Positions 11,599 to 33,575 of a DNA stretch of 64,000 nt are shown in pieces. The position numbers and the translations under genes are program-made. Origin of the DNA: Gammaproteobacteria bacterium (GTDB lineage Bacteria; Pseudomonadota; Gammaproteobacteria; Steroidobacterales; Rariloculaceae); assembly GCA_022825505.1 (NCBI GenBank), contig JAJDWR010000030.1, positions 39,169 through 103,168 on the forward strand. Reading direction: 5' to 3'. Every line of letters begins with the position of its first letter. Within the stretch, counting starts at the first letter, position 1. The notes below the pieces were generated by a model. The model was not told the origin of the DNA. It made no database searches and saw only the letters and a list, made by a program, of their open reading frames with translations.

Positions 11599-12735
11599 GT
11601 GCAGAACATGAACCGAATTTGCATCACCATCATTGCCTTTGGAATCGCCGCAGGCGCCTACGCGCATCATTCCGCTGCGCCGCATTTCGACATGGACAAT
11701 CCCGTAACGGTCGAAGGCGTCATCACCGAGCTCAGGCTGGTGAATCCGCACGCCTACGTGTATTTCGACGTGACCGACGACACCGGGGAGGTTGCCAACT
11801 GGCGTTGCGAGCTGGCCGGGGGAACAGGCATGAGACGGCGCGGCTGGACCGACGATTCCCTGGTGCCGGGCCAGGCGATTACCATGACCGGTGCGCCCGC
11901 CCGCCGCGAGGACCGCGTCTGCTATACGAACTTCATCGAATTCGAGGACGGCACCCGAATCGCCCGGAACGATCCTCCGCCGGGCTTCGAAACGGCTCCG
12001 CCGGCGGACGCTCCGGAAGCGCCGGAGACCTGGACGGCCTACCTGCCCAACGGTCAACCCAACCTCGGCGGCCCCTGGGTCCGGCAGGGGATGGGCGGCG
12101 GCATGGGGCCTCCTCCCGGGGGAGCGGCCGCGGGTCCGGGCGGAATGGGCCCGGCGCCGGGCGGCATGGCAGGCGGTGCGCCGGGAGGCGGGCGCCCGGC
12201 GCCCACCGAGGCCGGTCTGGCCGCGGCCGCGGATTACGAGCAGCCGTTCGACGATCCCGCCATACACTGTCACCCGGCGAACATCATCTTCGGCTTCACC
12301 CACGACAGTCATGTGAACGACATCTACCAGGCTGACGATACCGTCACGATCCAGTACGGCTACATGGATCTGGTCAGAACGGTTCACCTGGACCGGACGG
12401 AACACCCGGACGACATCGTGCCCAGCGTCGGCGGCCACTCCATCGGCCGGTGGGAGGGCGACGTGCTGGTGGTCGACACGGTGGGATTCGAGCAGGGCAT
12501 CGTGTTTCCGCTCGGCGACGGACTCATGCACAGCGCGGACATGCAGGTGACCGAGCGGTTCGAGGTCAGGGACGAAGGCCAGACCCTGGTGCGCGCCTAC
12601 GTCGCTCACGATCCGGCTTTCCTGCAGACCGACTGGGTCGGAGAGAGTGTCTTTCTGCGCACGAGCGAGCCCTACAGACCTTACAACTGCACGGAGCTGA
12701 GCGGCGACAACAACCGCCGGCCGGCGCCGGAGTAG
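11599..12735 (+). CDS. exported two-domain protein: HH...NPH module + Met/Gly/Pro linker + two-Cys 'GRWEGD' domain
   Basis: Signal peptide ends AYA, followed by HHSA. Motifs LVNPHAYV, HCHPANI...GGHSIGRWEGDVLVVDT...YNCTE. Alternative start at the ATG at 11608. Confidence 0.85.
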   Translation: MQNMNRICITIIAFGIAAGAYAHHSAAPHFDMDNPVTVEGVITELRLVNPHAYVYFDVTDDTGEVANWRCELAGGTGMRRRGWTDDSLVPGQAITMTGAPARREDRVCYTNFIEFEDGTRIARNDPPPGFETAPPADAPEAPETWTAYLPNGQPNLGGPWVRQGMGGGMGPPPGGAAAGPGGMGPAPGGMAGGAPGGGRPAPTEAGLAAAADYEQPFDDPAIHCHPANIIFGFTHDSHVNDIYQADDTVTIQYGYMDLVRTVHLDRTEHPDDIVPSVGGHSIGRWEGDVLVVDTVGFEQGIVFPLGDGLMHSADMQVTERFEVRDEGQTLVRAYVAHDPAFLQTDWVGESVFLRTSEPYRPYNCTELSGDNNRRPAPE

Positions 12736-12778: not shown

Positions 12779-13855
12779 GTGATTCGGGTGGCTGTAGCGT
12801 CGCGGGACCGGCAAGCTGATCCCCTGCGGAGGGCGGGACCCTTCATCTCGCGCATTCTGAGCGTGCTGACGCTTTCAGTCGCGCCGGCGGTCGCCGACGC
12901 CCATCATTCCTTCGCGATATACACTGACGAGATCACCGAAATCGAGGGTGAACTGGTCGACATTCACTGGGGCAATCCCCATGTGCACCTGACGGTTCGC
13001 GTTGCCGATTCGGGCCAGGACGCGGATTGGACGCTGGAGACCGGCAATCCCTATGTTCTGCAGCGCAGAGGGTTGCCGCAGGAACTTTTCCGCCGGGGCG
13101 ACACGATCAGAGCCGCCGGCCGGATTCACCGGGCGCAGGCCGCGCAGCTCTGGCTGCACAATTTGATGCTCGGTGACGGGCAGGAACTGCTGATGATCGC
13201 CGGCGTCGAGCCCCGTTGGAATGAAGTCGCCCTGGGCGGGGACGGCAGCGGCGTACCCGTCGAGGATGCAATCGCCCAGGATCGCGGTCTGTTCCGGACC
13301 TGGAGCCGGCCTGTGCTGCGGCCGATCGCCTACGGTGAGGGCCTTCCTTACCGGCGGGAACCTGGTTCAGGTGGTGCGGAGTGGCTCGCGCGAATGGACG
13401 AGTTCGCCGCCCGCTGCGAATCGGTGGGCATGCCCGGGGTGATGGCGACTCCCTATCCGATCGAGTTCCGCGACAATGGGTCATGGATCCGCTTGATCGG
13501 GTTTTCCAACAATGCGCTGATCGACCGCACCATCCATATGGAGAGTGCTGCGGCCGCAGCGGTACGCGAACCGAGCCGCTTCGGCCATTCGACAGGCCGC
13601 TGGGCAGCCGCCAACCGGCTCGAGGTCACGACGACGCATATAGACTGGCCTTATTTCGATGACAGCCTGGGGACACTCCAGAGCGATCTGGTCGAGACGC
13701 ATGAAACCTTTATCCTGAGCGAAGATCAGCGGCGTCTGGACTACGAAATGATCGTTTCCGATCCGGAAACGTTTACCCAGCCCGCCACGGCCATGGAAAC
13801 CCATTGGCTTGCGCTGGGGGAGTCGCTCGCCGAGCCGACGCATTGCGTGGAGTAA
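12779..13855 (+). CDS. exported two-domain protein: HH...NPH module + two-Cys 'GRW' domain
   Basis: Signal peptide ends ADA, followed by HHSF. Motifs WGNPHVHL, ARCESVGMP...FGHSTGRW...THCVE. The GTG start at 12779 is uncertain. Confidence 0.8.
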   Translation: MIRVAVASRDRQADPLRRAGPFISRILSVLTLSVAPAVADAHHSFAIYTDEITEIEGELVDIHWGNPHVHLTVRVADSGQDADWTLETGNPYVLQRRGLPQELFRRGDTIRAAGRIHRAQAAQLWLHNLMLGDGQELLMIAGVEPRWNEVALGGDGSGVPVEDAIAQDRGLFRTWSRPVLRPIAYGEGLPYRREPGSGGAEWLARMDEFAARCESVGMPGVMATPYPIEFRDNGSWIRLIGFSNNALIDRTIHMESAAAAAVREPSRFGHSTGRWAAANRLEVTTTHIDWPYFDDSLGTLQSDLVETHETFILSEDQRRLDYEMIVSDPETFTQPATAMETHWLALGESLAEPTHCVE

Positions 13856-15606: not shown

Positions 15607-17361
15607 TTACAGCGCGGCCAGGGGATCGGTCCCGTGGTGAAAGCCGCCCTGATCCCGCACCACTCGGGCGGTCCCTGACTCGTCGTAGTGCACCCAGACC
15701 AGGCCATGCAGGTCCCCGCCGCCCGGGATATCGATGATGCCCTTGCGCTCCCGCGTCAGCGCATCGAAGACGTAGATGGCGCCTTCGTAGTTGCTGGTTG
15801 CCCAGAATTCGTTGCCGCCCGGCGACAACAGGATGTGGTCGACCCGATACGCGGAAAACAGAACGTCCAGGCTGTTGCCGGTGGCGGTTTCGTACACGGT
15901 GACGGTGCGTCCGCCCACCAGGCCCGTGGCTTCGCCCTTGTCGGCGATCCAGACTTCCGAAGAGTCCGCATTCACGCTGCAGCCGTAGGGGCCGGGTCCC
16001 GTGGGCCGGGCCCAGGCGATCTCGCCAGTGTCGATGTTGATCCGGCTCACGGTGTTGTTGCCGGTGCTGGGCACGTACATGTGGCTGGAATCGTGATCGA
16101 AACAGATCCAGTCGGCGCGGTGCCCCGGATGGGGGTACTCCTGCAATACCTCCCAGGTGTCCGGGTCAATCCTTGCCACCCAGGATGCGGGCACCATGGT
16201 GAGTTCGCCGCGCAGGTACCGGCGCGCCGCCTGCATTCCGTAACCGTTGGGCTCGACGAGTACATAGATGAATTCGTTGTCGGTCCAGGCCGTATAGGCG
16301 TTGCCGCCCAGGTCCGACTCGTGGAATCCGCCGATGATCGTGTCGGTTTCGGGATCGAAGAGATAGGCGGTCAGCCCGTCCTCGTCCTGTGCGAATGAAT
16401 CGATGAGCATGTAGCGATCCCGGAAGACCTGGGCGTGGTGCATGCGTCCGCCGACGGCCAGTTGCCTGACCGGCTGCAGGGTGAGGGCATCGACCTTGAG
16501 AATGCTGGCCGCGGCTCTCGACAGTCCGGGCGGTGCACCCGTGGGTTCCAGGTCTCCGTCAGGCGCCGCACCGGAGATGTAGACATAGCGGCCGTCCGGC
16601 GACAACGCAGTGGAATGAACGGAGCTGCGAAGCTCGGCCGGAATCTCGTAGTAGGCGATGACTTCAAGGGTTTCGGCATCGCCCACCACCACCTTCATGC
16701 CTTCAGGCGTGAAGGTCTCGCCTGTTGTGAGATTCCGGGTTCCGCGCGTGCCGACGTTTTCATAGAAGTAGGTCTTGCCGGGCTCGGGCGTGAACTTGGG
16801 CTCTCCGGAGTCGAATTCCGCTGTCACGGTGACGTCGTAGGTGCGCAGCAGACTGCCTGGGCGGGCCCGCCTCTCCCAGGTGTCCACCACCGCCGAGAAG
16901 TCCTCGACGGCCCGGATCATCGCGTCGCGCTCGCTGGCGGTTGCGGATGGTGCGGTGGCCGGTTCCGCCGGCGCATCGGCCGTTTCGGGCTCAGGCGCCT
17001 GGGCCTGCAATGCGGCTACGTCTATGGCGCCCTCTTCACCGCCCGTCAATTCCCGAATGAAGACGGACAGTGCCAGCAGATCATCCGGCGTGGCGTTCAG
17101 CATATCGGCCAGTTCGGCCATTTCCGGATTGGTTCGGAGCTGGTAGTCGATCGCGCGAGGGGTGACGCTCGCATCGAGCGACGGGGCGAGCAGGCCGCCG
17201 GCCCCGTCCGCGCCGTGGCAGTCCACGCACGAATCCGTCAGGAAGAACAGTTCGCGTCCGCGCTCGGACAATTCGGCGACACTGTGTGTGGTGTCCTGGG
17301 GCGCATTGGTACAGGACACCAACGCAATGGAAACCAATGGAAGAACGGACAAATCTCTCAT
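15607..17361 (-). CDS. lipoprotein: N-terminal c-type cytochrome domain fused to a beta-propeller
   Basis: Lipobox IALVSC. Heme motif CVDCH. The C-terminal ~400 aa resemble YVTN/lactonase-like propeller repeats (DGRYVYISG, SEVWIADKG, NEFWATSNYEGAIYVFD). Confidence 0.8.
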   Translation of the reverse strand: MRDLSVLPLVSIALVSCTNAPQDTTHSVAELSERGRELFFLTDSCVDCHGADGAGGLLAPSLDASVTPRAIDYQLRTNPEMAELADMLNATPDDLLALSVFIRELTGGEEGAIDVAALQAQAPEPETADAPAEPATAPSATASERDAMIRAVEDFSAVVDTWERRARPGSLLRTYDVTVTAEFDSGEPKFTPEPGKTYFYENVGTRGTRNLTTGETFTPEGMKVVVGDAETLEVIAYYEIPAELRSSVHSTALSPDGRYVYISGAAPDGDLEPTGAPPGLSRAAASILKVDALTLQPVRQLAVGGRMHHAQVFRDRYMLIDSFAQDEDGLTAYLFDPETDTIIGGFHESDLGGNAYTAWTDNEFIYVLVEPNGYGMQAARRYLRGELTMVPASWVARIDPDTWEVLQEYPHPGHRADWICFDHDSSHMYVPSTGNNTVSRINIDTGEIAWARPTGPGPYGCSVNADSSEVWIADKGEATGLVGGRTVTVYETATGNSLDVLFSAYRVDHILLSPGGNEFWATSNYEGAIYVFDALTRERKGIIDIPGGGDLHGLVWVHYDESGTARVVRDQGGFHHGTDPLAAL

Positions 17362-17537: not shown

Positions 17538-17602
17538 AATAATATTGATTTGGCGTTTGGATTGGACTATGTTTATTGAAATTCACAAAGGTACAGTCCG
17601 CC

Positions 17603-18565
17603 ATGGACCTGCGCCAGATCCGATACTTCGTCGCTGTTGCCGAATCGAAAAGCCTGACGCGGGCGGTCGACCGGCTGGATGTTGCGCAGCCGGCGCTGAG
17701 CCTCAACATCAAGAGCCTCGAGCAGGAACTGGACGCACAGTTGTTCAACCGCAGCCAGCGCGGCATGGAACTGACCGACGCCGGCGGCGAGTTCCTGAAT
17801 CACGCCTACGGCATTCTTCGCCAGGTCGCCCAGGCTCAGCGCAGTGTCAACGACCTGGAGAGGGACCCGCACGGCAGCGTGGCCGTGGCCATGCCCCCGA
17901 GCCTCAGTCACGCACTCACGGTGCCGCTGTTCAATTACGTAAACGACCGGTTTCCGCGAATCGAACTGGATCTGGAAGAAGGGTTGCAGGCCAGCGTGCT
18001 GCCTGCCTTCGAACGCGGACAGTTCGACCTGCTCGTCCATTTCGATATTCCGAGGTCGAAGTCCCGGACCATCACCCCCATTTTTCGCGAACATCTGTAT
18101 CTGATCAGTCCGCTGGAAAATGGCGGTGAATCGGATGGATCGGACGTTTCCTTCCGCGAACTGGCCCGGCATCCGATCCTCAAGCCGTCGGACCGCAATA
18201 CCCTTGGCGCGCTGTTGGCGCGGCATGCCGCGAAGCAGGGTATCGAATTGAAGGGTCCCCCGATTCATACGCCGTACCATCAGACGATGCTGTTGATCAA
18301 GGCCGGAATCACCAGTGCCGTGTTGCCGTATTCCGCGGTCCACGACCTGGTGGGCAAGTCGGTCACCGCGCGCAAGATCGTACGGCCCGCGATTCGGCGG
18401 GACGTGGGCATCATCGCGCAGGCCGACCGTGCGCAGTCGTTTGCGACCCAGCAAGTCGCGCAGGCGATCAAGTCTGTCGTGACGCAACTGTGGCAATCGC
18501 GCAAGTGGCGCGGGGACTTGCTGATCGAGTCGGATGACGGGGCGGATGCCGCAATTGCGAGGTGA
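17603..18565 (+). CDS. LysR-family transcriptional regulator
   Basis: MDLRQIRYFVAVAESKSLTRAVDRLDVAQPALS HTH plus a LysR substrate-binding domain. ATG at 17603. Confidence 0.9.
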   Translation: MDLRQIRYFVAVAESKSLTRAVDRLDVAQPALSLNIKSLEQELDAQLFNRSQRGMELTDAGGEFLNHAYGILRQVAQAQRSVNDLERDPHGSVAVAMPPSLSHALTVPLFNYVNDRFPRIELDLEEGLQASVLPAFERGQFDLLVHFDIPRSKSRTITPIFREHLYLISPLENGGESDGSDVSFRELARHPILKPSDRNTLGALLARHAAKQGIELKGPPIHTPYHQTMLLIKAGITSAVLPYSAVHDLVGKSVTARKIVRPAIRRDVGIIAQADRAQSFATQQVAQAIKSVVTQLWQSRKWRGDLLIESDDGADAAIAR

Positions 18566-18569
18566 CGTT

Positions 18570-19292
18570 ATGAAAGTGCTGTTATCTGTCGCGTTGGCGA
18601 TTTGTTTGTTCGGCGCACTCCCGGCCGATGCCCAGCAGGGCTCGGATTCCGGAATGGACTTCCTGGGCGTCTACGCGCCACCGATCTTCGATGGCGGCGG
18701 TCCGCCCCGCCGCCAGCCGGAGATCATCCCGCTCTCCGAGGCCGGCCGCCAAGCGGTGGCGGATTACGATCCGGTGCTCGACAACCCGAGACTCCAGGAT
18801 GACTGCGCGCCGGAATTCATGCCAAGGCTCCTGTGGACCGGTAACCCCATCGAACTCCGCCAGGAAGACGGCGGCACGCTGATCATTCACTACGAACGGG
18901 GAGACACGTACCGTTACGTCGCCATGAACGGCGAGCCGCCGCCGGCTGACCGGGAAAATGCGCCTCTCGGTTACTCGGTCGGGCGCTGGGACGGCGATAT
19001 CCTTGTCATCGAAACGTCCCACATGGTGGGAGAACCCATTTCGGGCGGCTCACAGCCCCTCAGCCTTGAGGCCCGGGTCACGGAACGGTACTGGCGGGAA
19101 CCGGGCTCCATGGATCTGCAACTGGAGCTTGAGATCGATGACCCGGTGTATTACACGGAGACCTTCACCATGGGACGGGAATTCATCTGGGCGCCCGAAG
19201 AGGAGATTCGGGACTGGACCTGCGTCGATTTCGGGGACAGCACCGAACCGCCCGACATCGAGGAATTTCTGCGCATGCTGGAGGAACTCTAG
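18570..19292 (+). CDS. exported two-Cys 'GRWDGD' domain protein (no HH module)
   Basis: Signal peptide MKVLLSVALAICLFGALPADA. Motifs DDCAPEFMP...LGYSVGRWDGDILVIET...WTCVD. The start is 4 nt after the LysR stop. Confidence 0.8.
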   Translation: MKVLLSVALAICLFGALPADAQQGSDSGMDFLGVYAPPIFDGGGPPRRQPEIIPLSEAGRQAVADYDPVLDNPRLQDDCAPEFMPRLLWTGNPIELRQEDGGTLIIHYERGDTYRYVAMNGEPPPADRENAPLGYSVGRWDGDILVIETSHMVGEPISGGSQPLSLEARVTERYWREPGSMDLQLELEIDDPVYYTETFTMGREFIWAPEEEIRDWTCVDFGDSTEPPDIEEFLRMLEEL

Positions 19293-19317
19293 TGCGGTCC
19301 GTTGCCCGGAGGTCGTC

Positions 19318-21204
19318 ATGAGGTCTTTGAAACTTCTTCCGTTTCCGTTGCTGGCCTTGCTTCCGTATGCAGTGCACGCTCACCACGGAACCGTTACCAA
19401 CCCGCTCCTGTACCAGTCGGAACTCGTCGAGCTTCAGGGTGAGATCGTCGAGGTCTTTTGGCGCAACCCGCACACACGTGCAAAGCTGAGCGTTGTCGAC
19501 GAATTCGGCGCCGAAACGCTCTGGGAGATCGAATTCGGACCGAATCCCCGGCGCCTGGAAAACATGGGGCTCGCCCCCCACCATCTTCTCGGTACCGTTC
19601 GCGTGGCAGGCTTTGTGGCAAGGAACAATCCGCAGTCCCTCGGCATGCTGCACATCCTGATGCCCGACGGCAGGGAATACGTGCAGGGCGCCGGCCGCGA
19701 GATGCTCTGGTCGAACGACCGGCTGGTAGAACAGCCCGAACGTATCGATCCGGAAAAGGCGGTAACGGATGCCCTCGAAGCGGACGGAATATTTCGAAGT
19801 TGGGATACCCATTCCGGACCGTGGTTTGCCGGCGCTTTGCAGGAATTGGACTACACGGAGCGCGGCGCCGAACTCAATGCCGCATACGATCCGCTGACGG
19901 ACAATCGCCAGCTTCACTGCGAGCATGGCATGCCGGATGCGATGTTCGATCCGCGGCCGATGGGAATCTTTCGGGAAGGTAACGATATCCGCATCCAACT
20001 GGTCCAGTACGACATTCGGAGACTGATCCACATGGGTGAACCGGACCCGAATCCCGAGCCGTCCAACGTGGGCTACTCGGTGGGGAGGTGGGAAGGCGAT
20101 ACGCTGTTGGTTACCACCACACAAGTCGACTGGCCCTATTACTCCGACTACGGCACGCCGCAGTCGGATCAGGCTCGCTACGAAGAGAGCTTCCGGGTAG
20201 CCGAGGTAGACGGTGAGCCGGTGTTGCATTACGCGATCACGATCAGCGACCCGGTGGTATTCCCGGAGCCGCTGCATTTCGAGACCACCCGCACGCCGCT
20301 GCCCGGATACGAGTTCAGGCCCTACGACTGTACGGCCGAGTGGGAGGACTTCGCCCGGGCGGACGAATCAGAAATTCGTGCGGCAGTGGCGGCAATGGTG
20401 GACGAGTTTCTGAACGACAGGCCGGTTCAGCCCTTCGCCCCCGAGTTGTCCCTGGAAGAGGCGTATCGCTGGCAGGATGAACTGGTGGAGATGCTGCGCC
20501 CGACCCTGGGTGAAGTGGTGGGCTACAAGACCGGCGGCCATAGTCCGGGACCCGCCAACCCCAATTTCCCGGCCGGCGGAATCAGGGCGCAATTGCTTTC
20601 CGGCATGTTTCTGGAGAACGGCGCCGCCGTCCGCCTGGACGAAATGGGGGCGGTCAGCTTCCTGGAAGCCGATTTCGCGTTTCGCGTGGGCAGTGCCGAC
20701 ATCAATGACGCCGAGTCGGATCTGGAGATTCTTGCCGGTCTCGATGCCGTCGTCCCGTTCGCCGAGATTCCGGACCCGACGTCCGAGCCGGACGAGAACG
20801 GCATGATCAGGGGCATCGTCGGAAACATGTCGACACGCATCGCCCTGGCCGGCGAGCCCGTCGCCATCGGCTCGACGGAAGAGTGGCTGCAACGCCTGAA
20901 CAACATGGAGTATGCGGTGCTCGACGAGAACGGGACGGTCATCCAACGGAGGTCGATGGCGGACTGGTACCGGCCCATCGACGCTGTTCGATGGCTCAGG
21001 GACCACTTGCAGTCCCACGGCAAGGACCTGATGCCGGGGCAACTCCTCTCATTGGGTAATCTCGGCATCAATCGGCCGTTCTTCGACGGAACCGCGCGGG
21101 GCGACGTCTACACCGGTGACCGGTACCACGTCGAGTACTACGGCCTGCGCGACGACGGCGCGCCTGCCACGGTGACCATCAACATCATTCGCGGCGGCGA
21201 CTGA
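19318..21204 (+). CDS. exported three-domain fusion: HH...NPH module + two-Cys 'GRWEGD' domain + MhpD/HpcG-like hydratase/decarboxylase (FAH-superfamily) domain
   Basis: Signal peptide ends VHA, followed by HHGT. Motifs WRNPHTRA, HCEHGMP...VGYSVGRWEGDTLLVTT...YDCT. The C-terminal ~280 aa align by eye with 2-keto-4-pentenoate hydratase (EEAYRWQ..VVGYKTGG, FLEADFAFRV, VVPFAEIPD, PIDAVRWLRDHL..GQLLSLGNLG). Confidence 0.85.
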   Translation: MRSLKLLPFPLLALLPYAVHAHHGTVTNPLLYQSELVELQGEIVEVFWRNPHTRAKLSVVDEFGAETLWEIEFGPNPRRLENMGLAPHHLLGTVRVAGFVARNNPQSLGMLHILMPDGREYVQGAGREMLWSNDRLVEQPERIDPEKAVTDALEADGIFRSWDTHSGPWFAGALQELDYTERGAELNAAYDPLTDNRQLHCEHGMPDAMFDPRPMGIFREGNDIRIQLVQYDIRRLIHMGEPDPNPEPSNVGYSVGRWEGDTLLVTTTQVDWPYYSDYGTPQSDQARYEESFRVAEVDGEPVLHYAITISDPVVFPEPLHFETTRTPLPGYEFRPYDCTAEWEDFARADESEIRAAVAAMVDEFLNDRPVQPFAPELSLEEAYRWQDELVEMLRPTLGEVVGYKTGGHSPGPANPNFPAGGIRAQLLSGMFLENGAAVRLDEMGAVSFLEADFAFRVGSADINDAESDLEILAGLDAVVPFAEIPDPTSEPDENGMIRGIVGNMSTRIALAGEPVAIGSTEEWLQRLNNMEYAVLDENGTVIQRRSMADWYRPIDAVRWLRDHLQSHGKDLMPGQLLSLGNLGINRPFFDGTARGDVYTGDRYHVEYYGLRDDGAPATVTINIIRGGD

Positions 21205-21280
21205 CAAGCGATTTTCTGCAGTCTTGCAGCCGCGACGTTGCGCAGGTTCGTTCTTCGTTGGCTGTATTAGGAGATGAACA

Positions 21281-22612
21281 GTGAGTGTTGAACGATCCGG
21301 CGGCCTTCAGGCGGCTGACAGTGCTTACATGACCGGATTCGGTAACGAGCACGCTACTGAAGCCGAGGCCGGTGCACTGCCCATCGGCCGCAGTTCGCCG
21401 CAGAAGGCACCGCTGGGGCTCTATGCGGAAAAGTACAGCGGCACCGCGTTCACCGCGCCAAAGGCGAGGAATTTCCGCTCGTGGTTCTACCGGATCCGGC
21501 CGTCCGTGGCGACGGTCGGGTTCGAGGCCGTCGGCCATTCACGGCTGCTGAATGCCCCGGTCGGCGGTGCGGCGACGCCGCCGGACCCGATGCGATGGCA
21601 TCCCTTCCCGTTGCCCGACGAGCCGGCGGATTTCGTCGATGGCCTGTTCACCCTGGCCGCCTGCGGCGACGCGCACGCCCAGATCGGCGCCGGCGTGCAT
21701 ATCTATTGTGCGAACCGTTCCATGGACGACCGGTATTTCTACGACTGCGATGGCGAACTGCTGATCGTTCCCCAGGCCGGGACGCTGCGGATCCATACCG
21801 AGTGCGGCGTGCTGGACGTGCCGCCAAAGTCGATCGCGGTGATTCCCCGGGGACTCAAGTTTCGGGTGGAACTCACCGATGGGACCGCCCGCGGTTATGT
21901 CTGCGAGAACTACGGAGCCTTGCTCGAACTGCCGGAGCGCGGGCCGATCGGATCGGACTGTTTGGCCAACAGCAGAGACTTTGAGGCGCCGGTCGCCGCC
22001 TACGAGGATCGCGACGGGGACTTCGAATTGCTCTGCAAGCTGGACGGGCAGCTATACGTTTCCCGCGTGAAGCACTCGCCGCTGGACGTGGTGGCATGGC
22101 ATGGCAGCCTCTATCCCTACCGATACGATCTGGATCGATTCAATGTCATCGGGTCCGTGAGTTACGACCACCCCGATCCCTCGATCTTCACCGTCCTCAC
22201 ATCCCAATCGGATTCGCCGGGTACGGCGAACGTGGATTTCGTCATTTTCCCGCCCCGGTGGCTGACGATGGAGGACACCTTTCGCCCGGCCTGGTACCAC
22301 CGCAACGTCATGTCGGAGTACATGGGCCTGATCACCGGCGTTTACGATGCCAAGACCTCGGGCGGATTCACGCCCGGCGCGTCGAGCCTGCACAACTGCA
22401 TGGTGCCCCACGGTCCCGACGGGGAAGCCTACGAGCGGGCCACCACCATGGAACTGAAGCCCGAACGCCTGCGGGATACGATGGCGTTTATGTTCGAGTC
22501 GCGCTACCTGATCCGACCGACTCGGCTTGCGCTGGACGCGCCGGAGCACCAGTTGGACTACCCGGGCGTCTGGGACGGGCTCAGGCGGCATTTCGGGCAG
22601 CCCGGTAGTTGA
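21281..22612 (+). CDS. hmgA: homogentisate 1,2-dioxygenase
   Basis: 443 aa. [45 protein letters not shown] is the canonical HmgA N-terminus. GTG start with AGGAGA 6 nt upstream. Confidence 0.95.
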
Positions 22613-22679
22613 GTCGGGCAGCCTGGTAGTTGTGTCGGGTGGCCTGGTAGTTGTGTCGGGTGGCCCGATCATTGAGGCG
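22598..22679 (+). repeat. 21-bp tandem repeat, 3 good units plus 1 degenerate unit, overlapping the hmgA stop codon
   Basis: Units: cagcccggtagttgagtcggg / cagcctggtagttgtgtcggg / tggcctggtagttgtgtcggg / tggcccgatcattgaggcg. The hmgA TGA (22610-22612) sits inside unit 1. Confidence 0.9.
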
Positions 22680-22883
22680 AACGGGCACAGGGGACGCGCA
22701 CCGGTAGTTCGACGTTGCCGAACCGCCCCGGCTGACTGACGTTTAACGAAACCAAAAGACACTATTAGGCTCGCGGGGTGTTACGGGAGTGGCCAAGCGG
22801 ATATTGTTCGGTGCTGCTCGGCTTGGGTAGTCCAATGCCCGCGGCAACTGCGAGAATGCCGACCGAGCGAATTGGAGGTAAAC

Positions 22884-24395
22884 ATGGTGGCAAGTCTGGC
22901 GAACGATTTCGGTCAACTGCGCGGAGATGTCCGCAACTATCTGGATTGCGAACGGCGTCTTCTGATCGGCGGGGAGTGGGTACCCGCGTCCAGCGGCGCG
23001 ACGTTTCCGGTAATCGACCCTTCATCGGGGAAGGAGATCGCGCGCGTCGCCGAGGCGGGCGCCGCCGATGTCGATGCCGCCGTGGCGGCCGCGCGCAAGG
23101 CGTTCGAGGATCCGGCCTGGCGCGGCATGGCGCCGGAAGCCCGCGAACGCCTGCTCTGGCGTCTGGCGGACCTGGTCGAACAGAACGCAGACGAACTCGG
23201 ACAGATCGAAACCGTCGACAACGGCATGCTCGGATTCGTGGCGCGCAACCTCAATGTCATGGGCGCGGCCGGGGCCATTCGAAGCATCGGCGGATGGTCC
23301 AGCAAGATTTTCGGCAAGACTGCAGACATCGTGGCTCCGTTCCCCGGTGCTGAATGCTTCGGATACACGGTCAAGGAACCGGTTGGCGTCGTGGGCGCCA
23401 TCATTCCGTGGAACGTACCGTTGATGCTGGCGTCCTGGAAGCTCGCACCGGCGCTCGCCGCCGGCTGCACGGTGGTGCTTAAGCCGGCGGAGCAGACGCC
23501 GCTGTCGGCGTTGCGGCTGGGCGAACTGGCCGTGGAGGCCGGGTTCCCGCCTGGCGTAATCAACATCGTCACCGGATACGGAGAAACCGCGGGAGCGGCC
23601 CTGGTGGAGCACCCCGCCGTGGACAAGATTTCGTTCACCGGGTCCACCGTCACCGGCAAGCTCATCAACCGGGCCGCCACCGAGACGGTCAAGCGGGTCA
23701 CTCTGGAACTCGGCGGCAAGTCGCCGACCATCGTTTTCGACGACGCCGATATCGAAACCGCCATCGGCGGAGCGGCCGACTCGATCTTCTTCAACGCCGG
23801 ACAGGTTTGCGTGGCAGGCTCGCGCCTCTACGTGCAGCGGCGCAGGTTCGATGAGGTCGTATCCGGCGTAGCGGACCACGCCAACCGCCTCCGGCTGGGC
23901 GCCGGCCTGGATCCGGAGTCGCAGTTGGGCCCCCTGGTTTCGCACGACCAGCAGCAGCGCGTCTCCGGCTACATCCGGGTCGGTACCGAGGAGGGTGCGG
24001 AAGTGATCGCCGGCGGCAAGCCGGTCGACGCGGACGGGTACTACGTGCCACCCACCGTGCTGGTGAACACGAAGCCGACTTCGACGGTGGTTCAGGAAGA
24101 GATCTTCGGCCCGGTGCTGGTGGCGATGCCCTTCGACGATATCGACGAAGTCGTGGCGCAGGCCAATTCGACCATTTACGGGCTGGCGGCCACGGTGTGG
24201 AGCAACAACCTGTCGACCGTGCACCGGATCGTGCGCCGGCTGCGCTGCGGCAAGGTGAGCGTCAACACGGGTGGTTTCCCCCATGCAACGCTGCCCGAAG
24301 GAGGTTTCAAGCAGTCCGGGTTCGGGCGGGACCTCGGCTACGAGTCCGTGCTCGGCTATCTCGAGAACAAGAGCGTTCTGATCCGACTGCAATAG
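22884..24395 (+). CDS. NAD(P)+-dependent aldehyde dehydrogenase
   Basis: ALDH motifs ELGGKSP and catalytic FFNAGQVCVAGSR. ATG at 22884 with GGAGG upstream. Confidence 0.93.
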   Translation: MVASLANDFGQLRGDVRNYLDCERRLLIGGEWVPASSGATFPVIDPSSGKEIARVAEAGAADVDAAVAAARKAFEDPAWRGMAPEARERLLWRLADLVEQNADELGQIETVDNGMLGFVARNLNVMGAAGAIRSIGGWSSKIFGKTADIVAPFPGAECFGYTVKEPVGVVGAIIPWNVPLMLASWKLAPALAAGCTVVLKPAEQTPLSALRLGELAVEAGFPPGVINIVTGYGETAGAALVEHPAVDKISFTGSTVTGKLINRAATETVKRVTLELGGKSPTIVFDDADIETAIGGAADSIFFNAGQVCVAGSRLYVQRRRFDEVVSGVADHANRLRLGAGLDPESQLGPLVSHDQQQRVSGYIRVGTEEGAEVIAGGKPVDADGYYVPPTVLVNTKPTSTVVQEEIFGPVLVAMPFDDIDEVVAQANSTIYGLAATVWSNNLSTVHRIVRRLRCGKVSVNTGGFPHATLPEGGFKQSGFGRDLGYESVLGYLENKSVLIRLQ

Positions 24396-24496
24396 GGTCC
24401 GACCGCCTGGAGCCGTTGTGTCTGGTTCCAGTCGCCGAAGAGCCTTTATCTGTACAAGCCATCCATTTCACCTATTCAAAATAACCGGGAGAGCGC

Positions 24497-25480
24497 ATGA
24501 AGCTTGCGACATTGCGCGGCGAGAGCCGCGACGGCGACCTGATCGTCGTAAACAGGGACCTGAACACGGGCGTCCGTGTGCCGAACGTCGCTGCGAATCT
24601 GCAGGCCGCACTGGACAATTGGGCCGTGGCCGAACAGCCGCTGGCAGACGCCTATGAGCAACTCAACACGGGTGAAATGCCGGATTCGTTTCCCATCGTC
24701 ACCAGCGATCTCACATCGCCGCTCCCCCGTTGCTACCAGTTCCTGGACGGCTCGGTCTATCCGAACCACATGGCGGTGATCCGCAAGGCGCGGGGAGACT
24801 CGCTGCCGGAGGACTTTTACGAAAAGCCGCTGCTCTACCAGGGGATGTCCCACGAGATTCTCGGGCCGTACGAACCGCTCCTGTTGCCGGATGATGCCCC
24901 CTACGGCGTCGATTTCGAGGCGGAAGTGGTCGTGATCACCGACGACGTGCCCATGGGCGTTTCCCGCGAAGAGGCCTCCGGTCACATCAAGCTGCTCGGC
25001 CTGCTCAACGATTTCTCGCTGCGGGCAATCATTCCGCCGGAAATCGGCCGCAAGTTCGGCTTCATGCAGGGCAAGCCCGCCAACGCGCTGGGTCCCTTCG
25101 TGGTGACGCCCGACGAGTTGGGCGAGTCCTGGAACGGCGGACTCCTTAGCGGGCGGTACGTATGCGAACTCAACGGCGAGCGGTTCGGCGAACTGGACCC
25201 GGGCAGGGACAACGCGTTCGACTACCTCGATCTCATCGTCCACGCGACACTTACCCGCGGCCTTTGCGCCGGTACGGTCATCGGCGCCGGCGCGCTCGGC
25301 AACGAAGACCGCTCGACCGGAACCGGATGCATCGCGGAAAAACGCGCCAGGGAGTTCCTCGAGACCGGCGAGGCAAAGTCCCCGTTCATGAATTTCGGCG
25401 ACGTTGTCCGCCTGGAAATGTTCCACGACGACGGCCGCTCGATGTTCGGCGCCATAGAGCAGACGGTCAAACGCGCGTAG
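24497..25480 (+). CDS. fumarylacetoacetate hydrolase (FAH)-family protein, ~330-aa bacterial type
   Basis: 327 aa. FAH-fold pattern (DFEAEVVVITDD, FSLRAI, GTVIGAGAL). Lies in an hmgA context. Confidence 0.88.
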   Translation: MKLATLRGESRDGDLIVVNRDLNTGVRVPNVAANLQAALDNWAVAEQPLADAYEQLNTGEMPDSFPIVTSDLTSPLPRCYQFLDGSVYPNHMAVIRKARGDSLPEDFYEKPLLYQGMSHEILGPYEPLLLPDDAPYGVDFEAEVVVITDDVPMGVSREEASGHIKLLGLLNDFSLRAIIPPEIGRKFGFMQGKPANALGPFVVTPDELGESWNGGLLSGRYVCELNGERFGELDPGRDNAFDYLDLIVHATLTRGLCAGTVIGAGALGNEDRSTGTGCIAEKRAREFLETGEAKSPFMNFGDVVRLEMFHDDGRSMFGAIEQTVKRA

Positions 25481-25606
25481 ACGTCGTAACAGATCGCGGG
25501 ACGTACCGGCGACTCTGACATATGCCACGCGACCGTTGCCGAACTTGCCATGCGAGCGCGCCTGGCCATAATTTTCGTATAACCGGTGCCTGCCTGGCGG
25601 ACTCAC

Positions 25607-26503
25607 ATGCTTCAGACTCGAAGGCTTTATCACTTTCTCGCTATCGCGAATTCCGGTTCCATCACGCAGGCGGCCGATCAGATCGGCGTAACGCAGCCGG
25701 CATTGACCCGCAGTTTGAAGCAACTGGAAAACGAACTGAACGTCTTGCTCGTGGAGCGCAAGCCGAGCGGTATCGAACTGACGCCCGAGGGAAAGATCCT
25801 GGCGCGCCGGGTCAAGCTGATGAACCTCGAGTATCAGCACGCGCTCGCCGAAATAACCGAGTGGTCCCGGGGCGTGCGGGGTCGCCTGAATATCGCCGCC
25901 GGCCCGACCTGGATTTGCTGGATCCTGCCGCCGGTCATTGCCGAGTTCCAGCAGGCCTATCCGGACATCCGAGTGTCGCTGACGGGAGGGGGGTTCGAAT
26001 CCCAGTTGGAGCGATTGCTTTCCGGAGACGTGGATGCCGTCTGCGGTACCCTGGACTTTCCCGCCCACGCGGAACTCGTCAAGGAACCTCTCACGAGGCT
26101 GAGACACACGATCGTCGCTCGCGACGGGCACCCCCTGGCAGGCGAGGAAATCGTTTCACCCCGGGACATCGCCCGATACTCGTGGGTGATCCTGTCGGAT
26201 GATCATGTGAGTTCCGGCCGTATCGGCGCCTACTTCGTAGCCAACGGACTCGAGCCCCCGAAGGTCGTCGTGGAGACCAACGCTTTCGGCGCCTTGTTCC
26301 TGGTCCGGAGTTCGGACCTGCTCACGACATTCGCTTCTGCCGCGAAACCGGTTCTGAAAGATCTGTCGCTTACGACGATCCGCCACCCGGGAACGTTCTG
26401 GGACTTCGAGGCGGGCCTCACGCGCCTCAAAACGACGCGGCCCAGTGCCGCGCTGAACGCGTTCAGAACGATTCTGCGCAGCCATCTCGCCGACGCCAAT
26501 TAA
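25607..26503 (+). CDS. LysR-family transcriptional regulator
   Basis: MLQTRRLYHFLAIANSGSITQAADQIGVTQPALTRSLKQLE HTH plus an effector domain. Confidence 0.9.
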   Translation: MLQTRRLYHFLAIANSGSITQAADQIGVTQPALTRSLKQLENELNVLLVERKPSGIELTPEGKILARRVKLMNLEYQHALAEITEWSRGVRGRLNIAAGPTWICWILPPVIAEFQQAYPDIRVSLTGGGFESQLERLLSGDVDAVCGTLDFPAHAELVKEPLTRLRHTIVARDGHPLAGEEIVSPRDIARYSWVILSDDHVSSGRIGAYFVANGLEPPKVVVETNAFGALFLVRSSDLLTTFASAAKPVLKDLSLTTIRHPGTFWDFEAGLTRLKTTRPSAALNAFRTILRSHLADAN

Positions 26504-26526
26504 AGCCGCAAAACGCCCCGGTGCGC

Positions 26527-26850
26527 TCAGCGCCCATCGGCGACATGGTCGAGGACATCCGATTTTCTGAACCGGTAGCGATTCCCCTTCATGGTGTATC
26601 TGATTTTCTTCCCCTTGATCTTGCGGCGGACGGTCGACTCGGAAACGCCCAGAAATTCGCAAACCTCCCGCAGCGTCATGAGGTCGGATTCGCCGAACAA
26701 CCTCATGGAATCGGTGATGTCGACTCCGATTACATGCCCCGCCTTGTCGTAGCGAACAATGATGCCTTCGGCATAGACGGACCTGGCTTCGACCTGCTCG
26801 AAGAAGTCGATCGAAAGGTAATCCCGTGCGGCGTCGTGATGTATTTTCAT
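26527..26850 (-). CDS. DUF2283-like domain fused to excisionase/MerR-type HTH (putative antitoxin)
   Basis: MKIHHDAARDYLSIDF...GHVIGVDI (DUF2283-like) followed by MTLREVCEFLGVSESTVRRKIKGKK (HTH_17-like). ATG at 26848-26850 overlaps the upstream stop by 4 nt. Confidence 0.75.
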   Translation of the reverse strand: MKIHHDAARDYLSIDFFEQVEARSVYAEGIIVRYDKAGHVIGVDITDSMRLFGESDLMTLREVCEFLGVSESTVRRKIKGKKIRYTMKGNRYRFRKSDVLDHVADGR

Positions 26851-27095
26851 TCCCGTACCTCGAAGTGAGTCATGACGGTGATCACCGACCATGCCCGCCC
26901 GTCGTCCACGGCAACCACGGCAATCGTGTTGTCGCTCCGGCCTCCCAGGCGCTTGAAGGCGATGACCTTGTCCCTCGATTGTGCGATGACGCCATCCGGA
27001 TTCCGGAGCACGTCCTGAACTTCCTGTGGCGAAATGCCTCGCTGTATCATCCGCTCCACAGCGTGGGACCCGTATCGGATTTCCATGTTCCGCAC
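26847..27095 (-). CDS. DUF4258-like putative toxin
   Basis: 82 aa. The HAVERMIQRGISPQEVQDVL pattern is typical of DUF4258. Forms a bicistron with the following small gene. Confidence 0.72.
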   Translation of the reverse strand: MRNMEIRYGSHAVERMIQRGISPQEVQDVLRNPDGVIAQSRDKVIAFKRLGGRSDNTIAVVAVDDGRAWSVITVMTHFEVRE

Positions 27096-27277
27096 AGGAT
27101 ACAGGGGCGCCTTAAACTGGTCAAAAACTTGTCATTGTTCCTTCAAAACCATCGGTGCGTTCCATGGAGGAAAGCGGCGAAACGCATAAGCGCCGATTAT
27201 GGTGGAAGGCGGAGATTGCATTAGTTTCGCGCGGGACACGCAGTTATGATCGGATTGCGGTGTTTCAGGGAGATCAT

Positions 27278-28972
27278 GTGAACTCAGCAGCAGTACCTTC
27301 CCCGGACCCGGCGAGCATTCCGTCCGCGGCATCGGCGCCCGGCGGGATACCGGTTCGAATGACCGCCGGCGAGGCGGTTGCCAGGTCGTTGCTCGCGCAC
27401 GGCGTGGACACCCTGTTCGGTATCCCCGGCGTGCACATGTACGGTTTCAACGATGCGGTGGCACGGGAGCCGATCGACTTCATCACCACCCGCCACGAGC
27501 AGGGCGCAGGCTACATGGCGTTCGGCTACGCCAAGTCCAGCGGCAGGACCGGCGTCTACACTGTTGTGCCCGGTCCCGGCATGCTCAACTCGTCTGCCGC
27601 GCTCTGCACCGCCTACGGGGCCAATACGCCGGTGCTCTGCGTCACCGGGAACATCATGTCCCACCTGATCGGGCAGGGGAGAGGGCAATTGCACGAATTG
27701 CCCGACCAACTGGCCACGATGCGTGGCTTCACGGGTTGGGCCGAGCGAATCGACCACCCGAGCCAGGCGCCGGGCGTGGTGGCCGAGGCGTTTCGCCAGA
27801 TGCACACGGGCCGTATCCGCCCCGCGGCCATCGAGGCGCCGTGGGATGTGTTCGAGACTTCCGCCGATGTTGTGCTGGATGTCGACCGCGAAGTACCGCC
27901 GCCGCCGCCGCCGGATCAGGACCAGATTGCAAAGGCGGCAAAGTTGATCCGTAAAGCCGGCAACCCGCTGATCGTTGTCGGCGCCGGCGCGTATCATGCA
28001 GGCGAGGAGATCGAAGCGCTGGCGAAACTGCTCCAGGCGCCGGTGACGGCCCATCGCAGCGGCAAGGGTATCGTCAGCAACCGAAGCCCCTACGGGCTAT
28101 TGTCCACGGCTGCGTTCGAGTATTGGCCCAGGTGCGATCTACTCATTGGCATCGGAAGCCGCCTGGAACTGGCGCATATGCGCTGGAATTGGTTGCCCGA
28201 AGGCCTCCGGACCGTGCGCGTGGATATCGATCCGACGGAGTTTGTTCGCCTGCCGCCCGATGTGGGCGTGGTCGCCGATTCAAGGGAGGGTACCCGGGCG
28301 CTGCTGGATGTGCTGGAGAAGACGATCGGCAAGCGCGATGATCGCACCGAAGAGTTCGCCGGTTACAAGGCCTCCGCCGAAGCCTCGCTCGAAACCCTGC
28401 AGCCGCAGGTTCAGTACCTGAAGGCGATTCGCAGGGCGCTGCCGGATGACGGTTTCTTCGTGGAAGAGATCACCCAGACCGGGTTCGCGGCCCGGGTGGC
28501 CTTTCCCGTCTACGGACCGCGGCAATACGTGACCTGCGGCTACCAGGACAATCTGGGTTACGGTTTTCACACCGCCCTGGGCGTCAAGGTGGCCAATCCC
28601 GACAAGGGCGTCGTCGCCGCCTGCGGTGACGGCGGCTTCATGTTCGGCGTCCAGGAACTGGCGACGGCGGTTCAGTTCAATATCAACCTCGTTACCGTGA
28701 TCTTCGACAACGGCGGTTTCGAAAACGTGCGCCGCGATCAATCGCAGCGGTTCGGGGGCCGCGATTTCGGGGCGGACCTGGTCAATCCGGACTTCGTGAA
28801 GATGGCGGAGAGTTTCGGCGCCAAGGGCGTCAAGGTCAGCGGGCCGGACGCGCTGACGCGGGCGATCGAGGAGGGTTTCCGGGAACAGGGGCCGGTGATC
28901 ATCGTGGTGCCCGTCGATGCCCGGACCGAGTCGTCACCCTGGCCGTTCGTCCATCCGGCGCCCCCGGCCTGA
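27278..28972 (+). CDS. thiamine-diphosphate-dependent enzyme (acetolactate synthase/benzoylformate decarboxylase-like)
   Basis: N-terminal Pyr domain (GEAVARSLLAHGVDTLFGIPGVH). C-terminal ThDP motif GDGGFMF...N. GTG at 27278 has AGGGAG upstream. The ATG at 27359 is an alternative start. Confidence 0.88.
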   Translation: MNSAAVPSPDPASIPSAASAPGGIPVRMTAGEAVARSLLAHGVDTLFGIPGVHMYGFNDAVAREPIDFITTRHEQGAGYMAFGYAKSSGRTGVYTVVPGPGMLNSSAALCTAYGANTPVLCVTGNIMSHLIGQGRGQLHELPDQLATMRGFTGWAERIDHPSQAPGVVAEAFRQMHTGRIRPAAIEAPWDVFETSADVVLDVDREVPPPPPPDQDQIAKAAKLIRKAGNPLIVVGAGAYHAGEEIEALAKLLQAPVTAHRSGKGIVSNRSPYGLLSTAAFEYWPRCDLLIGIGSRLELAHMRWNWLPEGLRTVRVDIDPTEFVRLPPDVGVVADSREGTRALLDVLEKTIGKRDDRTEEFAGYKASAEASLETLQPQVQYLKAIRRALPDDGFFVEEITQTGFAARVAFPVYGPRQYVTCGYQDNLGYGFHTALGVKVANPDKGVVAACGDGGFMFGVQELATAVQFNINLVTVIFDNGGFENVRRDQSQRFGGRDFGADLVNPDFVKMAESFGAKGVKVSGPDALTRAIEEGFREQGPVIIVVPVDARTESSPWPFVHPAPPA

Positions 28973-29159
28973 CGGCGGGCCGGTCTTGCTGCGGGTCTCG
29001 TCGAGACCTCTCCCGGTCGGGCGAGTTGGCATTTCGGTGTCGAATCGTCCAGTCGGTGTCGAATCGACGAGCAACTGATCGCGATTCGCCAGGCCAATGC
29101 CAGGTCAGAGCGAGGTCAATGCGAGGCCGGTACGAGCTCAGCACGTAGTCTGCGCGAGA

Positions 29160-29804
29160 TCAGAGCGTGACGCGCTCATCGACGTAGAGTTTCCAGTCAC
29201 TCTTCTGTTTCGGTTTGGTGCGCAGCCAGACCGCGGTGTCCGGACGTCCCTCGAACTCCAGCGGCAACAGCATCCCACGCAGGAAATGCACATCCTGCGC
29301 GGTTGCCGGCGTGGAAATCACCGCTTCGGGTCCCGTTTCCCACCACGGGTCCCCCGGGTAGGCGCCTCCGCCGCTCTCCGATGTCTGTTCAATGATGAAA
29401 GGACCGGACAACAGCGCGCGGATACCGGGGCCCGGATGCGTGTGACAGTCTGCCGCGTCCGGGGAAGGGTGGTTGATCCGGTCCAGGCGAAAGATCCATT
29501 CGCTTCCGGCCGGGATATCCAGCGACCAGATATGCCGGGACATTCGCATCATGGTCTCGATGTTGGCCGGCGCCGGTGCAGGACCGTCCGTCAATTCCCA
29601 TCGGAAAATTCGCGCACCTTCCGGACCGGCCATGACGGTCACCGCGTCGTCAAAGTACGCGGCCTCATCCGTGGGGATTGCCTGCCCATTGACGTCGGCC
29701 GTGCCCTGGTGCGTATAGAGAATCCTGTGTCCGCCGAGCCGTGGCAGCGACAGGCCGGCGTTCGGACCGATCACGTCGTTGAGGTAGTTGAGGTAGTAGG
29801 ACAT
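29160..29804 (-). CDS. cupin-like hypothetical protein
   Basis: 214 aa from the ATG at 29802-29804 (AGGGAGA upstream). DCHTHPGPGIRALLSG resembles cupin motif 1. The functional call is weak. Confidence 0.6.
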   Translation of the reverse strand: MSYYLNYLNDVIGPNAGLSLPRLGGHRILYTHQGTADVNGQAIPTDEAAYFDDAVTVMAGPEGARIFRWELTDGPAPAPANIETMMRMSRHIWSLDIPAGSEWIFRLDRINHPSPDAADCHTHPGPGIRALLSGPFIIEQTSESGGGAYPGDPWWETGPEAVISTPATAQDVHFLRGMLLPLEFEGRPDTAVWLRTKPKQKSDWKLYVDERVTL

Positions 29805-29829
29805 GACGAAAATTCTCCCTGCCGAAACC

Positions 29830-33523: not shown

Positions 33524-33575
33524 CGGCGTGCAGGGCGGCCCGATTGCGCGCAGCGGCCAGGAAGGGGGCTGCCTG

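Follow-up and report, generated by a model that had tools for sequence, protein, structure and literature searches.

The open reading frame (ORF) at 19318-21204 (plus strand) of a 64-kb window of sponge-symbiont DNA (the window being the whole stretch of 64,000 nucleotides that was analysed) is a genuine gene and, as judged from its sequence, encodes a single polypeptide predicted to be exported and to consist of three modules: a DUF6152 module, a beta-barrel module with two cysteines (the two-Cys module) and a hydratase-like C-terminal domain of the fumarylacetoacetate hydrolase (FAH) superfamily. It is very probable that this triple fusion is recent and arose by a deletion that joined two separately exported neighbour genes, with export as a trait of the family. 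An earlier reading of this DNA (the original prediction) had proposed a fusion of these three parts and had tied it to aromatic ring cleavage through adjacent homogentisate genes; the present finding is more informative on the fusion and less so on the homogentisate link.

The mechanical ORF runs from 18958 to 21204, and the biological start is the ATG at 19318, giving a product of 628 amino acids (aa). A Shine-Dalgarno sequence precedes this ATG and the same Met is used as start by all aligned homologues, so that the start codon and ORF first proposed hold. No internal Met or ribosome-binding site (RBS) was found that could yield a stand-alone hydratase-like domain, and a promoter and terminator scan gave nothing above chance. 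DUF6152 was the only Pfam domain above its cut-off in the 628-aa protein. The three domain calls of the original prediction were all correct (Pfam, NCBIfam, AlphaFold2 and Foldseek), and the motifs that it had listed were all located: GYKTGG at aa 402-407, FLEADFAF at 448-455, PFAEIPD at 480-486 and GQLLSLGN at 574-581. A whole-protein MAFFT alignment of all matches was dropped because the barrel and hydratase domains became mixed in it; conservation counts come instead from per-domain alignments of 52 and 53 homologues. The features of the gene are as follows.

19308..19312, plus strand: Shine-Dalgarno sequence GGAGG, with a 5-nt spacer before the ATG at 19318 (read from the sequence)
19318..19380, plus strand: Sec-type signal peptide, aa 1-21, MRSLKLLPFPLLALLPYAVHA, predicted cleavage VHA|HH
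19381..19692, plus strand: DUF6152 module, aa 22 to ~125, predicted oligonucleotide/oligosaccharide-binding (OB) fold (Pfam PF19649)
19750..20349, plus strand: two-Cys module, aa ~145-344, predicted helical lead-in and calycin/FABP-like beta-barrel
20350..20361, plus strand: fusion junction F345-A346-R347-A348 (blastn and alignment to L001)
20359..21204, plus strand: MhpD/HpcG/4-oxalocrotonate-decarboxylase-like domain (FAH superfamily), aa 348-628 and stop (weak NCBIfam matches, HpcG alignment, Foldseek)
20527-20529, 20665-20667, 20671-20673 and 20764-20766, plus strand: putative key residues K404, E450, D452 and E483, respectively (HpcG alignment)

Origin and recurrence of the fusion

The best database relatives of the protein each cover half of the query and are of two kinds. 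The first comprises 347-aa proteins with a DUF6152 module and a barrel, 72-95% identical to the query and ending in …EWE[D/E]FAG and a stop. The second comprises proteins of 315-351 aa that have a signal peptide of their own and are 82% identical to the C-terminal part. Two loci of close relatives, L001 and L007 (93-95% nucleotide identity and the same synteny; 95% for L001), hold two separate genes, a 347-aa gene ending in …EWE[E/N]FAG and a stop being followed by a 315-aa gene that starts with the signal peptide …NAPAQSDAPADESE. Bases 3583-3744 of L001 (162 bp) are swapped for bases 20356-20357 of the window, a net loss of 160 bp by which the first gene loses its stop codon and the hydratase gene its signal peptide, the 55-bp spacer between them disappears and the two frames are joined. 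After this deletion, the hydratase-like protein would ride out on the signal peptide of the first gene.

Sequencing error had been named as an explanation that would undo the fusion; neither it nor misassembly accounts for the fused gene. The junction 20355/20358 is spanned without gaps by contigs of four DNA runs (three sponge metagenomes of one study and one marine metagenome of another, ~97% identical), and the exact 628-aa protein is present on three public contigs. The same fused structure occurs in L006, a long-read metagenome-assembled genome (MAG) chromosome of Candidatus (Ca.) Rariloculaceae. Metatranscriptome contigs from runs X21 and X24 span the fused junction, and runs X22 and X17 show the unfused form. 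These contigs suggest that the fused allele is expressed, with carry-over of DNA into the RNA libraries possible.

Fused alleles fall into three junction types. FA(R/Q)xDESE was found in the window, L006, P0422 and P0425, FAQSEAPADESE in L009, P0458 and P0443 (with the whole mature N-terminus of the second protein kept) and FSGSLAGQAVPSANGSD in L011/P0451. In neighbour-joining trees, built for each gene half, fused alleles are interspersed with unfused ones; the window groups with L001 or L002, L006 with L007 and L009 with L008, and L011 stands apart. A single origin of all fused alleles was rejected because of the three junction types and the interleaved trees, and at least three independent in-frame fusions are the most economical reading of the sequences. 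The junctions of the window and L006 are equal in length and differ at two bases; they may represent one event spread by recombination. A survey of orthologues for fused or split versions, suggested with the original prediction, found fusions elsewhere too; that the triple fusion is recent and the unfused form the norm had not been recognised in that prediction.

All four combinations of fused or unfused gene with the hmgA cassette (described below) present or absent occur among relatives that are ~90-95% identical (window, L001, L002, L006 and L007). Together with the disagreeing trees of the gene halves, the allele combinations suggest recombination in the symbiont population.

The event is like the Rosetta-stone fusions of operon neighbours in that adjacent, co-oriented genes were joined in frame by a small deletion and in that the components are fused otherwise in other taxa. 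It differs in that an internal signal peptide was also removed and in that, by the present reading, three or more such fusions arose in a single lineage of family rank.

The three modules

The n-region of the signal peptide is basic and its hydrophobic core is 14 aa long; V stands at -3 and A at -1. The N-terminal segments of ~100 homologues are variable and hydrophobic and end in an invariant A-H-H, and the AlphaFold2 (AF2) predicted local distance difference test score (pLDDT) is < 50 for aa 1-19. Cleavage at VHA|HH, as first proposed, is therefore plausible. A Tat signal was considered and ruled out, the twin-arginine motif being absent.

The match to PF19649 (aa 15-85) passed the gathering threshold with 30.9 bits against a cut-off of 27. 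Residues H22, H23, W48, N50-P51-H52 and W69 are invariant in the DUF6152 module, and A21, H22, H23, W48, N50, P51 and H52 are invariant or nearly so in the 52 and 53 aligned sequences. AF2 modelled the module with a pLDDT of ~90, and Foldseek matched it to SSB and the LysRS N-domain (TM-score TMt 0.5-0.59, every E > 1e-3). As in Pfam DUF6152, a signal peptide is followed by HH and then by W.NPH, but here the module is joined to two more, whereas most members are ~120 aa or 350-380 aa long. The His-His N-terminus predicted for the mature protein and the NPH motif probably form a metal or ligand site.

In histidine-brace proteins (lytic polysaccharide monooxygenases, CopC, YcnI) the N-terminal His exposed by cleavage is a metal ligand, and CusF is an OB-like copper chaperone. 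The DUF6152 module is like these in its predicted mature His22-His23, invariant together with His52, and in being a small, predicted periplasmic beta-barrel module. It differs from the histidine-brace proteins in its predicted OB-like fold, which is not an Ig/fibronectin-like sandwich, and from CusF in having no Met ligands. A literature search found no mention of DUF6152 or PF19649, and one for 'histidine brace' plus 'OB-fold' gave nothing relevant.

Six more DUF6152 genes (34-77 bits, Pfam) are present in the window, making seven in all; four of the six encode a C-terminal part like the two-Cys barrel. The DUF6152 paralogous family is strongly expanded in this symbiont. The surroundings of the seven genes include two TonB-dependent receptors, a sulfatase, two metallo-beta-lactamase (MBL)-fold proteins and a CBM9/DUF5916 protein.

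5171-5533, minus strand: DUF6152 gene
11599-12735, plus strand: DUF6152 gene
12779-13855, plus strand: DUF6152 gene
47196-48281, minus strand: DUF6152 gene
48400-49032, plus strand: DUF6152 gene
51935-53086, plus strand: DUF6152 gene

The two-Cys module contains C201 and C338, the sole two Cys of the 628-aa protein, which are invariant in 52 homologues and would be capable of forming a disulfide. Its motifs are C.HGMPD.MFDP and GYSVGRWEGDTL..TT..DWPYY..GTPQSD. No Pfam or NCBIfam model matched the module, and a sequence profile of aa 1-347 found no relative in the PDB. The module was modelled with a pLDDT of 88-97. Foldseek matched the barrel to FABP1, CRABP2, avidins and a dinoflagellate luciferase domain (TMt 0.45-0.62, E 3e-3 or weaker), the best match being FABP1 2f73 (E 2.9e-3, TMt 0.53, root-mean-square deviation 7.8) and CRABP2 reaching a TMt of 0.62; neither the barrel nor the DUF6152 part had a Foldseek match at E ≤ 1e-3. 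The tentative likeness to calycin-type barrels (FABP/CRABP, avidins, luciferase domain) lies in the predicted barrel topology of aa ~210-330. The differences are the want of a sequence relationship or Pfam model, the extra helical lead-in and the conserved Cys pair. By these comparisons the two-Cys barrel belongs to no described family, and the model suggests that it is probably a small-molecule binding cup. For aa 1-347 the AF2 model had a pLDDT of 88.5 and a predicted TM-score (pTM) of 0.84, and this pTM suggests that the OB and barrel modules pack as one unit.

Sequence and model together place the C-terminal domain as a new variant of the FAH superfamily that is predicted to be exported, in the branch of MhpD, HpcG and 4-oxalocrotonate decarboxylase. 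In NCBIfam it had only weak matches of aa 366-590, to HpaH (35.8 bits where the cut-off is 351.5, E 6e-9) and to DmpE (E 6e-7, 29.1 bits against 408.8), and no PF01557 match was obtained in the 628-aa protein at E up to 0.01. In a sequence search of the PDB, HpcG (2eb4) was recovered at E 0.0015 with the single sequence and at 7e-5 with the family profile. The AF2 model of the domain (pLDDT 84.9, pTM 0.86), which has the FAH-type fold including its N-terminal helical segment, gave a Foldseek top 20 made up entirely of 8ih6 (AmnE/F), 2eb4-6 (HpcG), 5d2f/5d2i (NahK), and 1sv6 and 2wqt (MhpD), with E ~3e-14 to 2e-12, TM 0.7-0.83 and identity 16-20%; other FAH-superfamily members came next, at E ~1e-7 to 1e-8.

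HMMER alignments place K61, E106, E108 and E139 of HpcG on K404, E450, D452 and E483, all four of which are invariant in 53 family members. The Lys and the three acidic positions, whose retention the original prediction had left to be checked, are thus kept. E106, E108 and E139 are the residues that we take to be the metal ligands in the HpcG structure, their numbering having been checked by counting in the alignment, and the PDB titles of 2eb6 ('with Mg ion') and 2eb5 ('with oxalate') are consistent with a metal site in HpcG.

The domain shares with MhpD, HpcG (HpaH), DmpE-XylJ and NahK/DmpH/AmnE (COG3971 branch) its predicted fold, the Lys and metal-ligand positions and a C-terminal GQ..S.G motif. 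It is set apart by low identity, sub-threshold scores and Glu-x-Asp, by its export signal (or fusion behind one), by the lack of a meta-cleavage operon and by its DUF6152 and two-Cys barrel partners. Because of the sub-threshold scores and the predicted non-cytoplasmic, non-operon lifestyle, it was classed as an exported FAH variant and not as an orthologue of any named enzyme. A literature search for periplasmic FAH returned nothing relevant.

Export across the family, possible function and alternatives

A scan of species-representative genomes with the hydratase profile yielded 80 loci, from Ca. Rariloculaceae, Pseudohongiella, Woeseiaceae, Azotimanducaceae, other Gammaproteobacteria and Acidobacteriota (Vicinamibacteria, Ca. 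Marinacidobacterium); many are from sponge MAGs. Woeseiaceae have a DUF6152-hydratase fusion of 399 aa, and the stop of a 231-aa barrel gene overlaps the start codon of this fusion gene. Elsewhere in the Gammaproteobacteria the hydratase gene is adjoined by a divergent DUF6152 gene (~128 aa) and by one or two divergent genes that contain a barrel, and at one locus each of the three modules has its own gene, the genes following one another. The hydratase gene of Acidobacteriota and Pseudohongiella stands alone. With three fusion architectures and adjacency besides, the link between the HH, two-Cys and MhpD-like modules drawn in the original prediction is robust, and functional coupling of the three is likely.

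All stand-alone hydratase homologues among the 80 loci carry either a signal peptidase I (SPase-I) signal peptide (…ALA|QSEAP) or a lipobox (L-x-G/A-C). Export is therefore a predicted trait of the clade and not a by-product of fusion. An extracytoplasmic location of an MhpD-like domain is unusual, as the original prediction had implied. An exhaustive HMMER search of 1.84 billion cluster representatives (50% identity clustering) gave 17 proteins at E ≤ 1e-30, 222 at ≤ 1e-10 and 425 at ≤ 1e-3. Sampled members, 30-40% identical, had signal peptides and K/E-x-D/E motifs and no Pfam match; the contexts of two distant members were unrelated neighbourhoods in which no pathway was evident. De novo clustering of neighbours at the 80 loci, which was noisy owing to spurious ORFs in high-GC DNA, found only lineage-specific partners and no universal one. 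No meta-cleavage partner (ring-cleavage dioxygenase, aldolase or acylating dehydrogenase) was found in the conserved neighbourhood.

In Vicinamibacteria (Acidobacteriota loci L020-L059) the hydratase-like gene encodes a predicted lipoprotein. It adjoins a major facilitator superfamily (MFS) transporter in 18 loci and lies near a 957-aa TonB-like outer-membrane protein in 21 (examples are L033 10797-12017, minus strand, and L036 2083-4956, plus strand). No DUF6152 or barrel gene was found within 10 kb of the hydratase-like gene at these loci.

In the textbook view, hydratases and decarboxylases of the FAH superfamily serve aromatic catabolism in the cytoplasm. The finding defines a clade predicted to be systematically exported, with soluble or lipid-anchored members, and in several marine lineages ties it by recurrent fusion to DUF6152 and to an unannotated two-Cys barrel, neither of known function. 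The fusions serve as a natural Rosetta stone, naming the three proteins that should be studied jointly and the compartment to study them in. Sponge symbionts have a heavily expanded set of DUF6152-barrel genes, and knowing their role would help to explain the processing of host-derived or dissolved organic matter.

The reading slightly favoured is an exported (periplasmic) three-module polypeptide whose modules normally act jointly, as proteins that are separate or fused in other ways. The modules might interact physically, and the unit would act outside the cytoplasm on a metabolite of 2-oxo-acid, dienol or 1,3-dicarbonyl type. The barrel and OB modules, perhaps through the His-His/NPH site, would capture or present the ligand; the FAH-type domain would carry out Mg/Mn/Ca-assisted hydration, decarboxylation or C-C hydrolysis; and the product would then be taken up by the cell. 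The chemistry assigned here to the FAH-type domain is tentative. A bolder proposal, which is doubtful at present, is that in marine Gammaproteobacteria and Acidobacteriota DUF6152, the barrel and the exported MhpD-like domain make up a periplasmic machine for catabolism that has so far gone unrecognised. In such a machine the His-His of DUF6152 would form a metal centre of redox or Lewis-acid character (a histidine-brace type of site carried by an OB fold), the barrel would hold a hydrophobic or aromatic substrate, and the FAH-type domain would hydrate or decarboxylate the resulting oxo-acid before uptake. If true, ring-fission-type chemistry would be carried out outside the cytoplasm.

Several observations weigh against a working three-module enzyme. 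The domain is only remotely similar to hydratases and decarboxylases that have been characterised (16-20% identity, scores far under the NCBIfam cut-offs, no PF01557), and the second putative metal ligand is Asp (Glu-x-Asp) and not Glu (Glu-x-Glu). Canonical MhpD and HpcG form large homo-oligomers (2wqt, 'dodecahedral assembly of MhpD'), with which a 347-aa N-terminal appendage may be incompatible. Members of the wider family lie in heterogeneous neighbourhoods, from which no pathway emerges. Fused alleles are in the minority, with six full-length fused proteins against dozens of unfused 347-aa proteins among the clusters listed. In the fused allele P0161 a total of ~85 aa is missing, the GYKTGG Lys motif among them, P0163 and P0444 (also fused) are without nearly the whole hydratase domain, and L005, an 86% relative, carries no hydratase gene. 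From the eroded fused alleles and the loss in L005, the hydratase module is therefore dispensable in some strains. The losses in P0161, P0163 and P0444 are in frame and lie beyond the shared fusion junctions; these alleles may reflect genuine variation between strains or the collapse of short contigs during assembly (two of them are on contigs of 1.8-2.9 kb).

The same eroded alleles, the L005 locus and the scarcity of fused alleles speak for a second explanation, in which the fusion is a neutral or degenerative accident, loss of the signal peptide is a first step by which this lineage of sponge symbionts loses the hydratase-like gene, and the C-terminal domain adds little or nothing. Also in its favour, 12 of 36 substitutions between the window and the fused strain X4 change an amino acid, and 10 of these 12 fall in the hydratase part. 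This explanation is nonetheless unlikely. The hydratase domain of the window keeps every family-invariant residue, and its ratio of nonsynonymous to synonymous substitution rates (dN/dS) against L001 is 0.16; the N-terminal part gives 0.07 and hmgA 0.05. Moreover, each of the fusions (at least three) preserved the reading frame and has diverged since, metatranscriptome contigs contain the fused junction, and Woeseiaceae stably fuse the same domain to DUF6152. The conserved residues and dN/dS suggest that the fused hydratase copy of the window is probably functional.

Alternatively, the FAH-type domain could be a non-catalytic binding module (a pseudo-enzyme acting as a metal or oxo-acid receptor) that serves uptake or sensing jointly with the OB and barrel modules, for instance at a step downstream of TonB-dependent receptors. 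The setting of the seven DUF6152 genes of the window among TonB-dependent receptors, a sulfatase and MBL-fold proteins would suit such a role, as would the predicted acidobacterial lipoproteins beside an MFS transporter and a TonB-like receptor and the lack of linked meta-cleavage partners (dioxygenase, aldolase). However, the Lys and three metal ligands are strictly conserved across two phyla, which is more typical of catalysis, although metal-mediated binding would conserve them too and the point is not decisive. A pure binding role appears improbable.

Neighbouring genes and the homogentisate cassette

The neighbours named in the original prediction (LysR, hmgA, aldehyde dehydrogenase (ALDH), FAH-family hydrolase, LysR) are present as it described them. 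The genes around the fusion are as follows.

17576..18565, plus strand: LysR-family regulator (Pfam HTH_1 and LysR_substrate), kept in L001, L006 and L007
18570..19292, plus strand: predicted stand-alone exported two-Cys barrel paralogue, 240 aa, signal peptide …ADA|QQ (BLASTP)
21281-22612, plus strand: hmgA (Pfam/NCBIfam, 628 bits)
22872-24395, plus strand: StyD-like ALDH (Pfam/NCBIfam)
24497-25480, plus strand: FAH-family hydrolase (Pfam/NCBIfam)
25586-26503, plus strand: second LysR (Pfam/NCBIfam)
26527-27095, minus strand: small DUF2283/HTH genes (Pfam/NCBIfam)
27350..28972, plus strand: thiamine pyrophosphate (TPP)-dependent enzyme of NCBIfam NF006122/PRK08266 type, no signal peptide (Pfam TPP_enzyme_N/M/C)

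Of 85 loci, the window, L001 and L007 alone have the block hmgA-ALDH-FAH-LysR. Two stretches of the window are insertions by comparison with L006: bases 21205-27348 (the cassette and the small DUF2283/HTH genes) and bases 28973-33631 (a 235-aa ORF, a sulfatase and a CitMHS transporter). L007 holds both inserted blocks as far as its locus reaches. The homogentisate cassette is strain-variable and not conserved context, and the fusion gene shows no conserved association with the pathway set of hmgA, fumarylacetoacetase and maleylacetoacetate isomerase. Since it is absent from most relatives, its adjacency is no evidence of function, and the earlier tie to ring cleavage through the homogentisate genes fails, the cassette being an insertion in comparison with L006, L002, L008, L009 and L011. 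What is left of 'aromatic ring-cleavage chemistry' we infer from distant homology (16-20% identity). For annotation, the adjacent homogentisate genes are a mobile cassette unfit for naming the hydratase-like gene, and the label '2-keto-4-pentenoate hydratase' over-states what is known of the domain.

That the protein is an ordinary cytoplasmic hydratase/decarboxylase of a meta-cleavage or homogentisate pathway, given its N-terminal domains by a wrong start, sequencing error or chimeric assembly, is scarcely credible: it does adjoin hmgA, ALDH and the FAH-family hydrolase in the window, and JGI names its relatives '2-keto-4-pentenoate hydratase', but four DNA runs and two RNA runs, besides a long-read chromosome, bear out the junction, no alternative internal Met/RBS exists, unfused relatives encode the domain with a signal peptide of its own, and the hmgA cassette is an insertion missing from most relatives.

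The 240-aa paralogue upstream of the fusion shows 30% identity to aa 180-364 of the fusion protein (BLASTP, E 6e-14). It occupies the same position in L001, L002, L006 and L007, and a copy in L009 (240 aa) lies ~2.5 kb upstream. This gene is a conserved upstream partner. Neither the paralogue itself nor any of its 104 relatives had a Pfam domain, and none of these relatives had an informative name.

The TPP gene is a conserved downstream neighbour of the locus in Ca. Rariloculaceae. It follows directly on the hydratase gene in L002, L006, L008, L009 and L011, and in L005 it follows a 359-aa gene. The L006 orthologue matched NF006122 with 805 bits against a cut-off of 571, and its nearest named relative is 5-guanidino-2-oxopentanoate decarboxylase. 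The TPP enzyme is thus weakly consistent with a 2-oxo-acid theme. In a literature search, 'Rariloculaceae' gave incidental mentions only.

At the edge of the hmgA cassette, a gene for a DUF2283 and HTH_17 protein (26527-26892, minus strand) overlaps an 82-aa ORF (26847-27095, minus strand), and the pair looks like a toxin-antitoxin or addiction-type module. It also precedes the TPP gene in L011, with 90% identity. A 21-bp tandem repeat (3.6 copies, 90% matches) covers the 3' end of hmgA and the spacer behind it (22593-22667), and its length differs from that in L001. Upstream of the first LysR gene, 15607-17361 (minus strand) encodes a 584-aa predicted lipoprotein that bears a cytochrome c motif (CVDCH) near its N-terminus and resembles a beta-propeller at its C-terminus; this gene is kept upstream of the LysR gene in L006 and L007.

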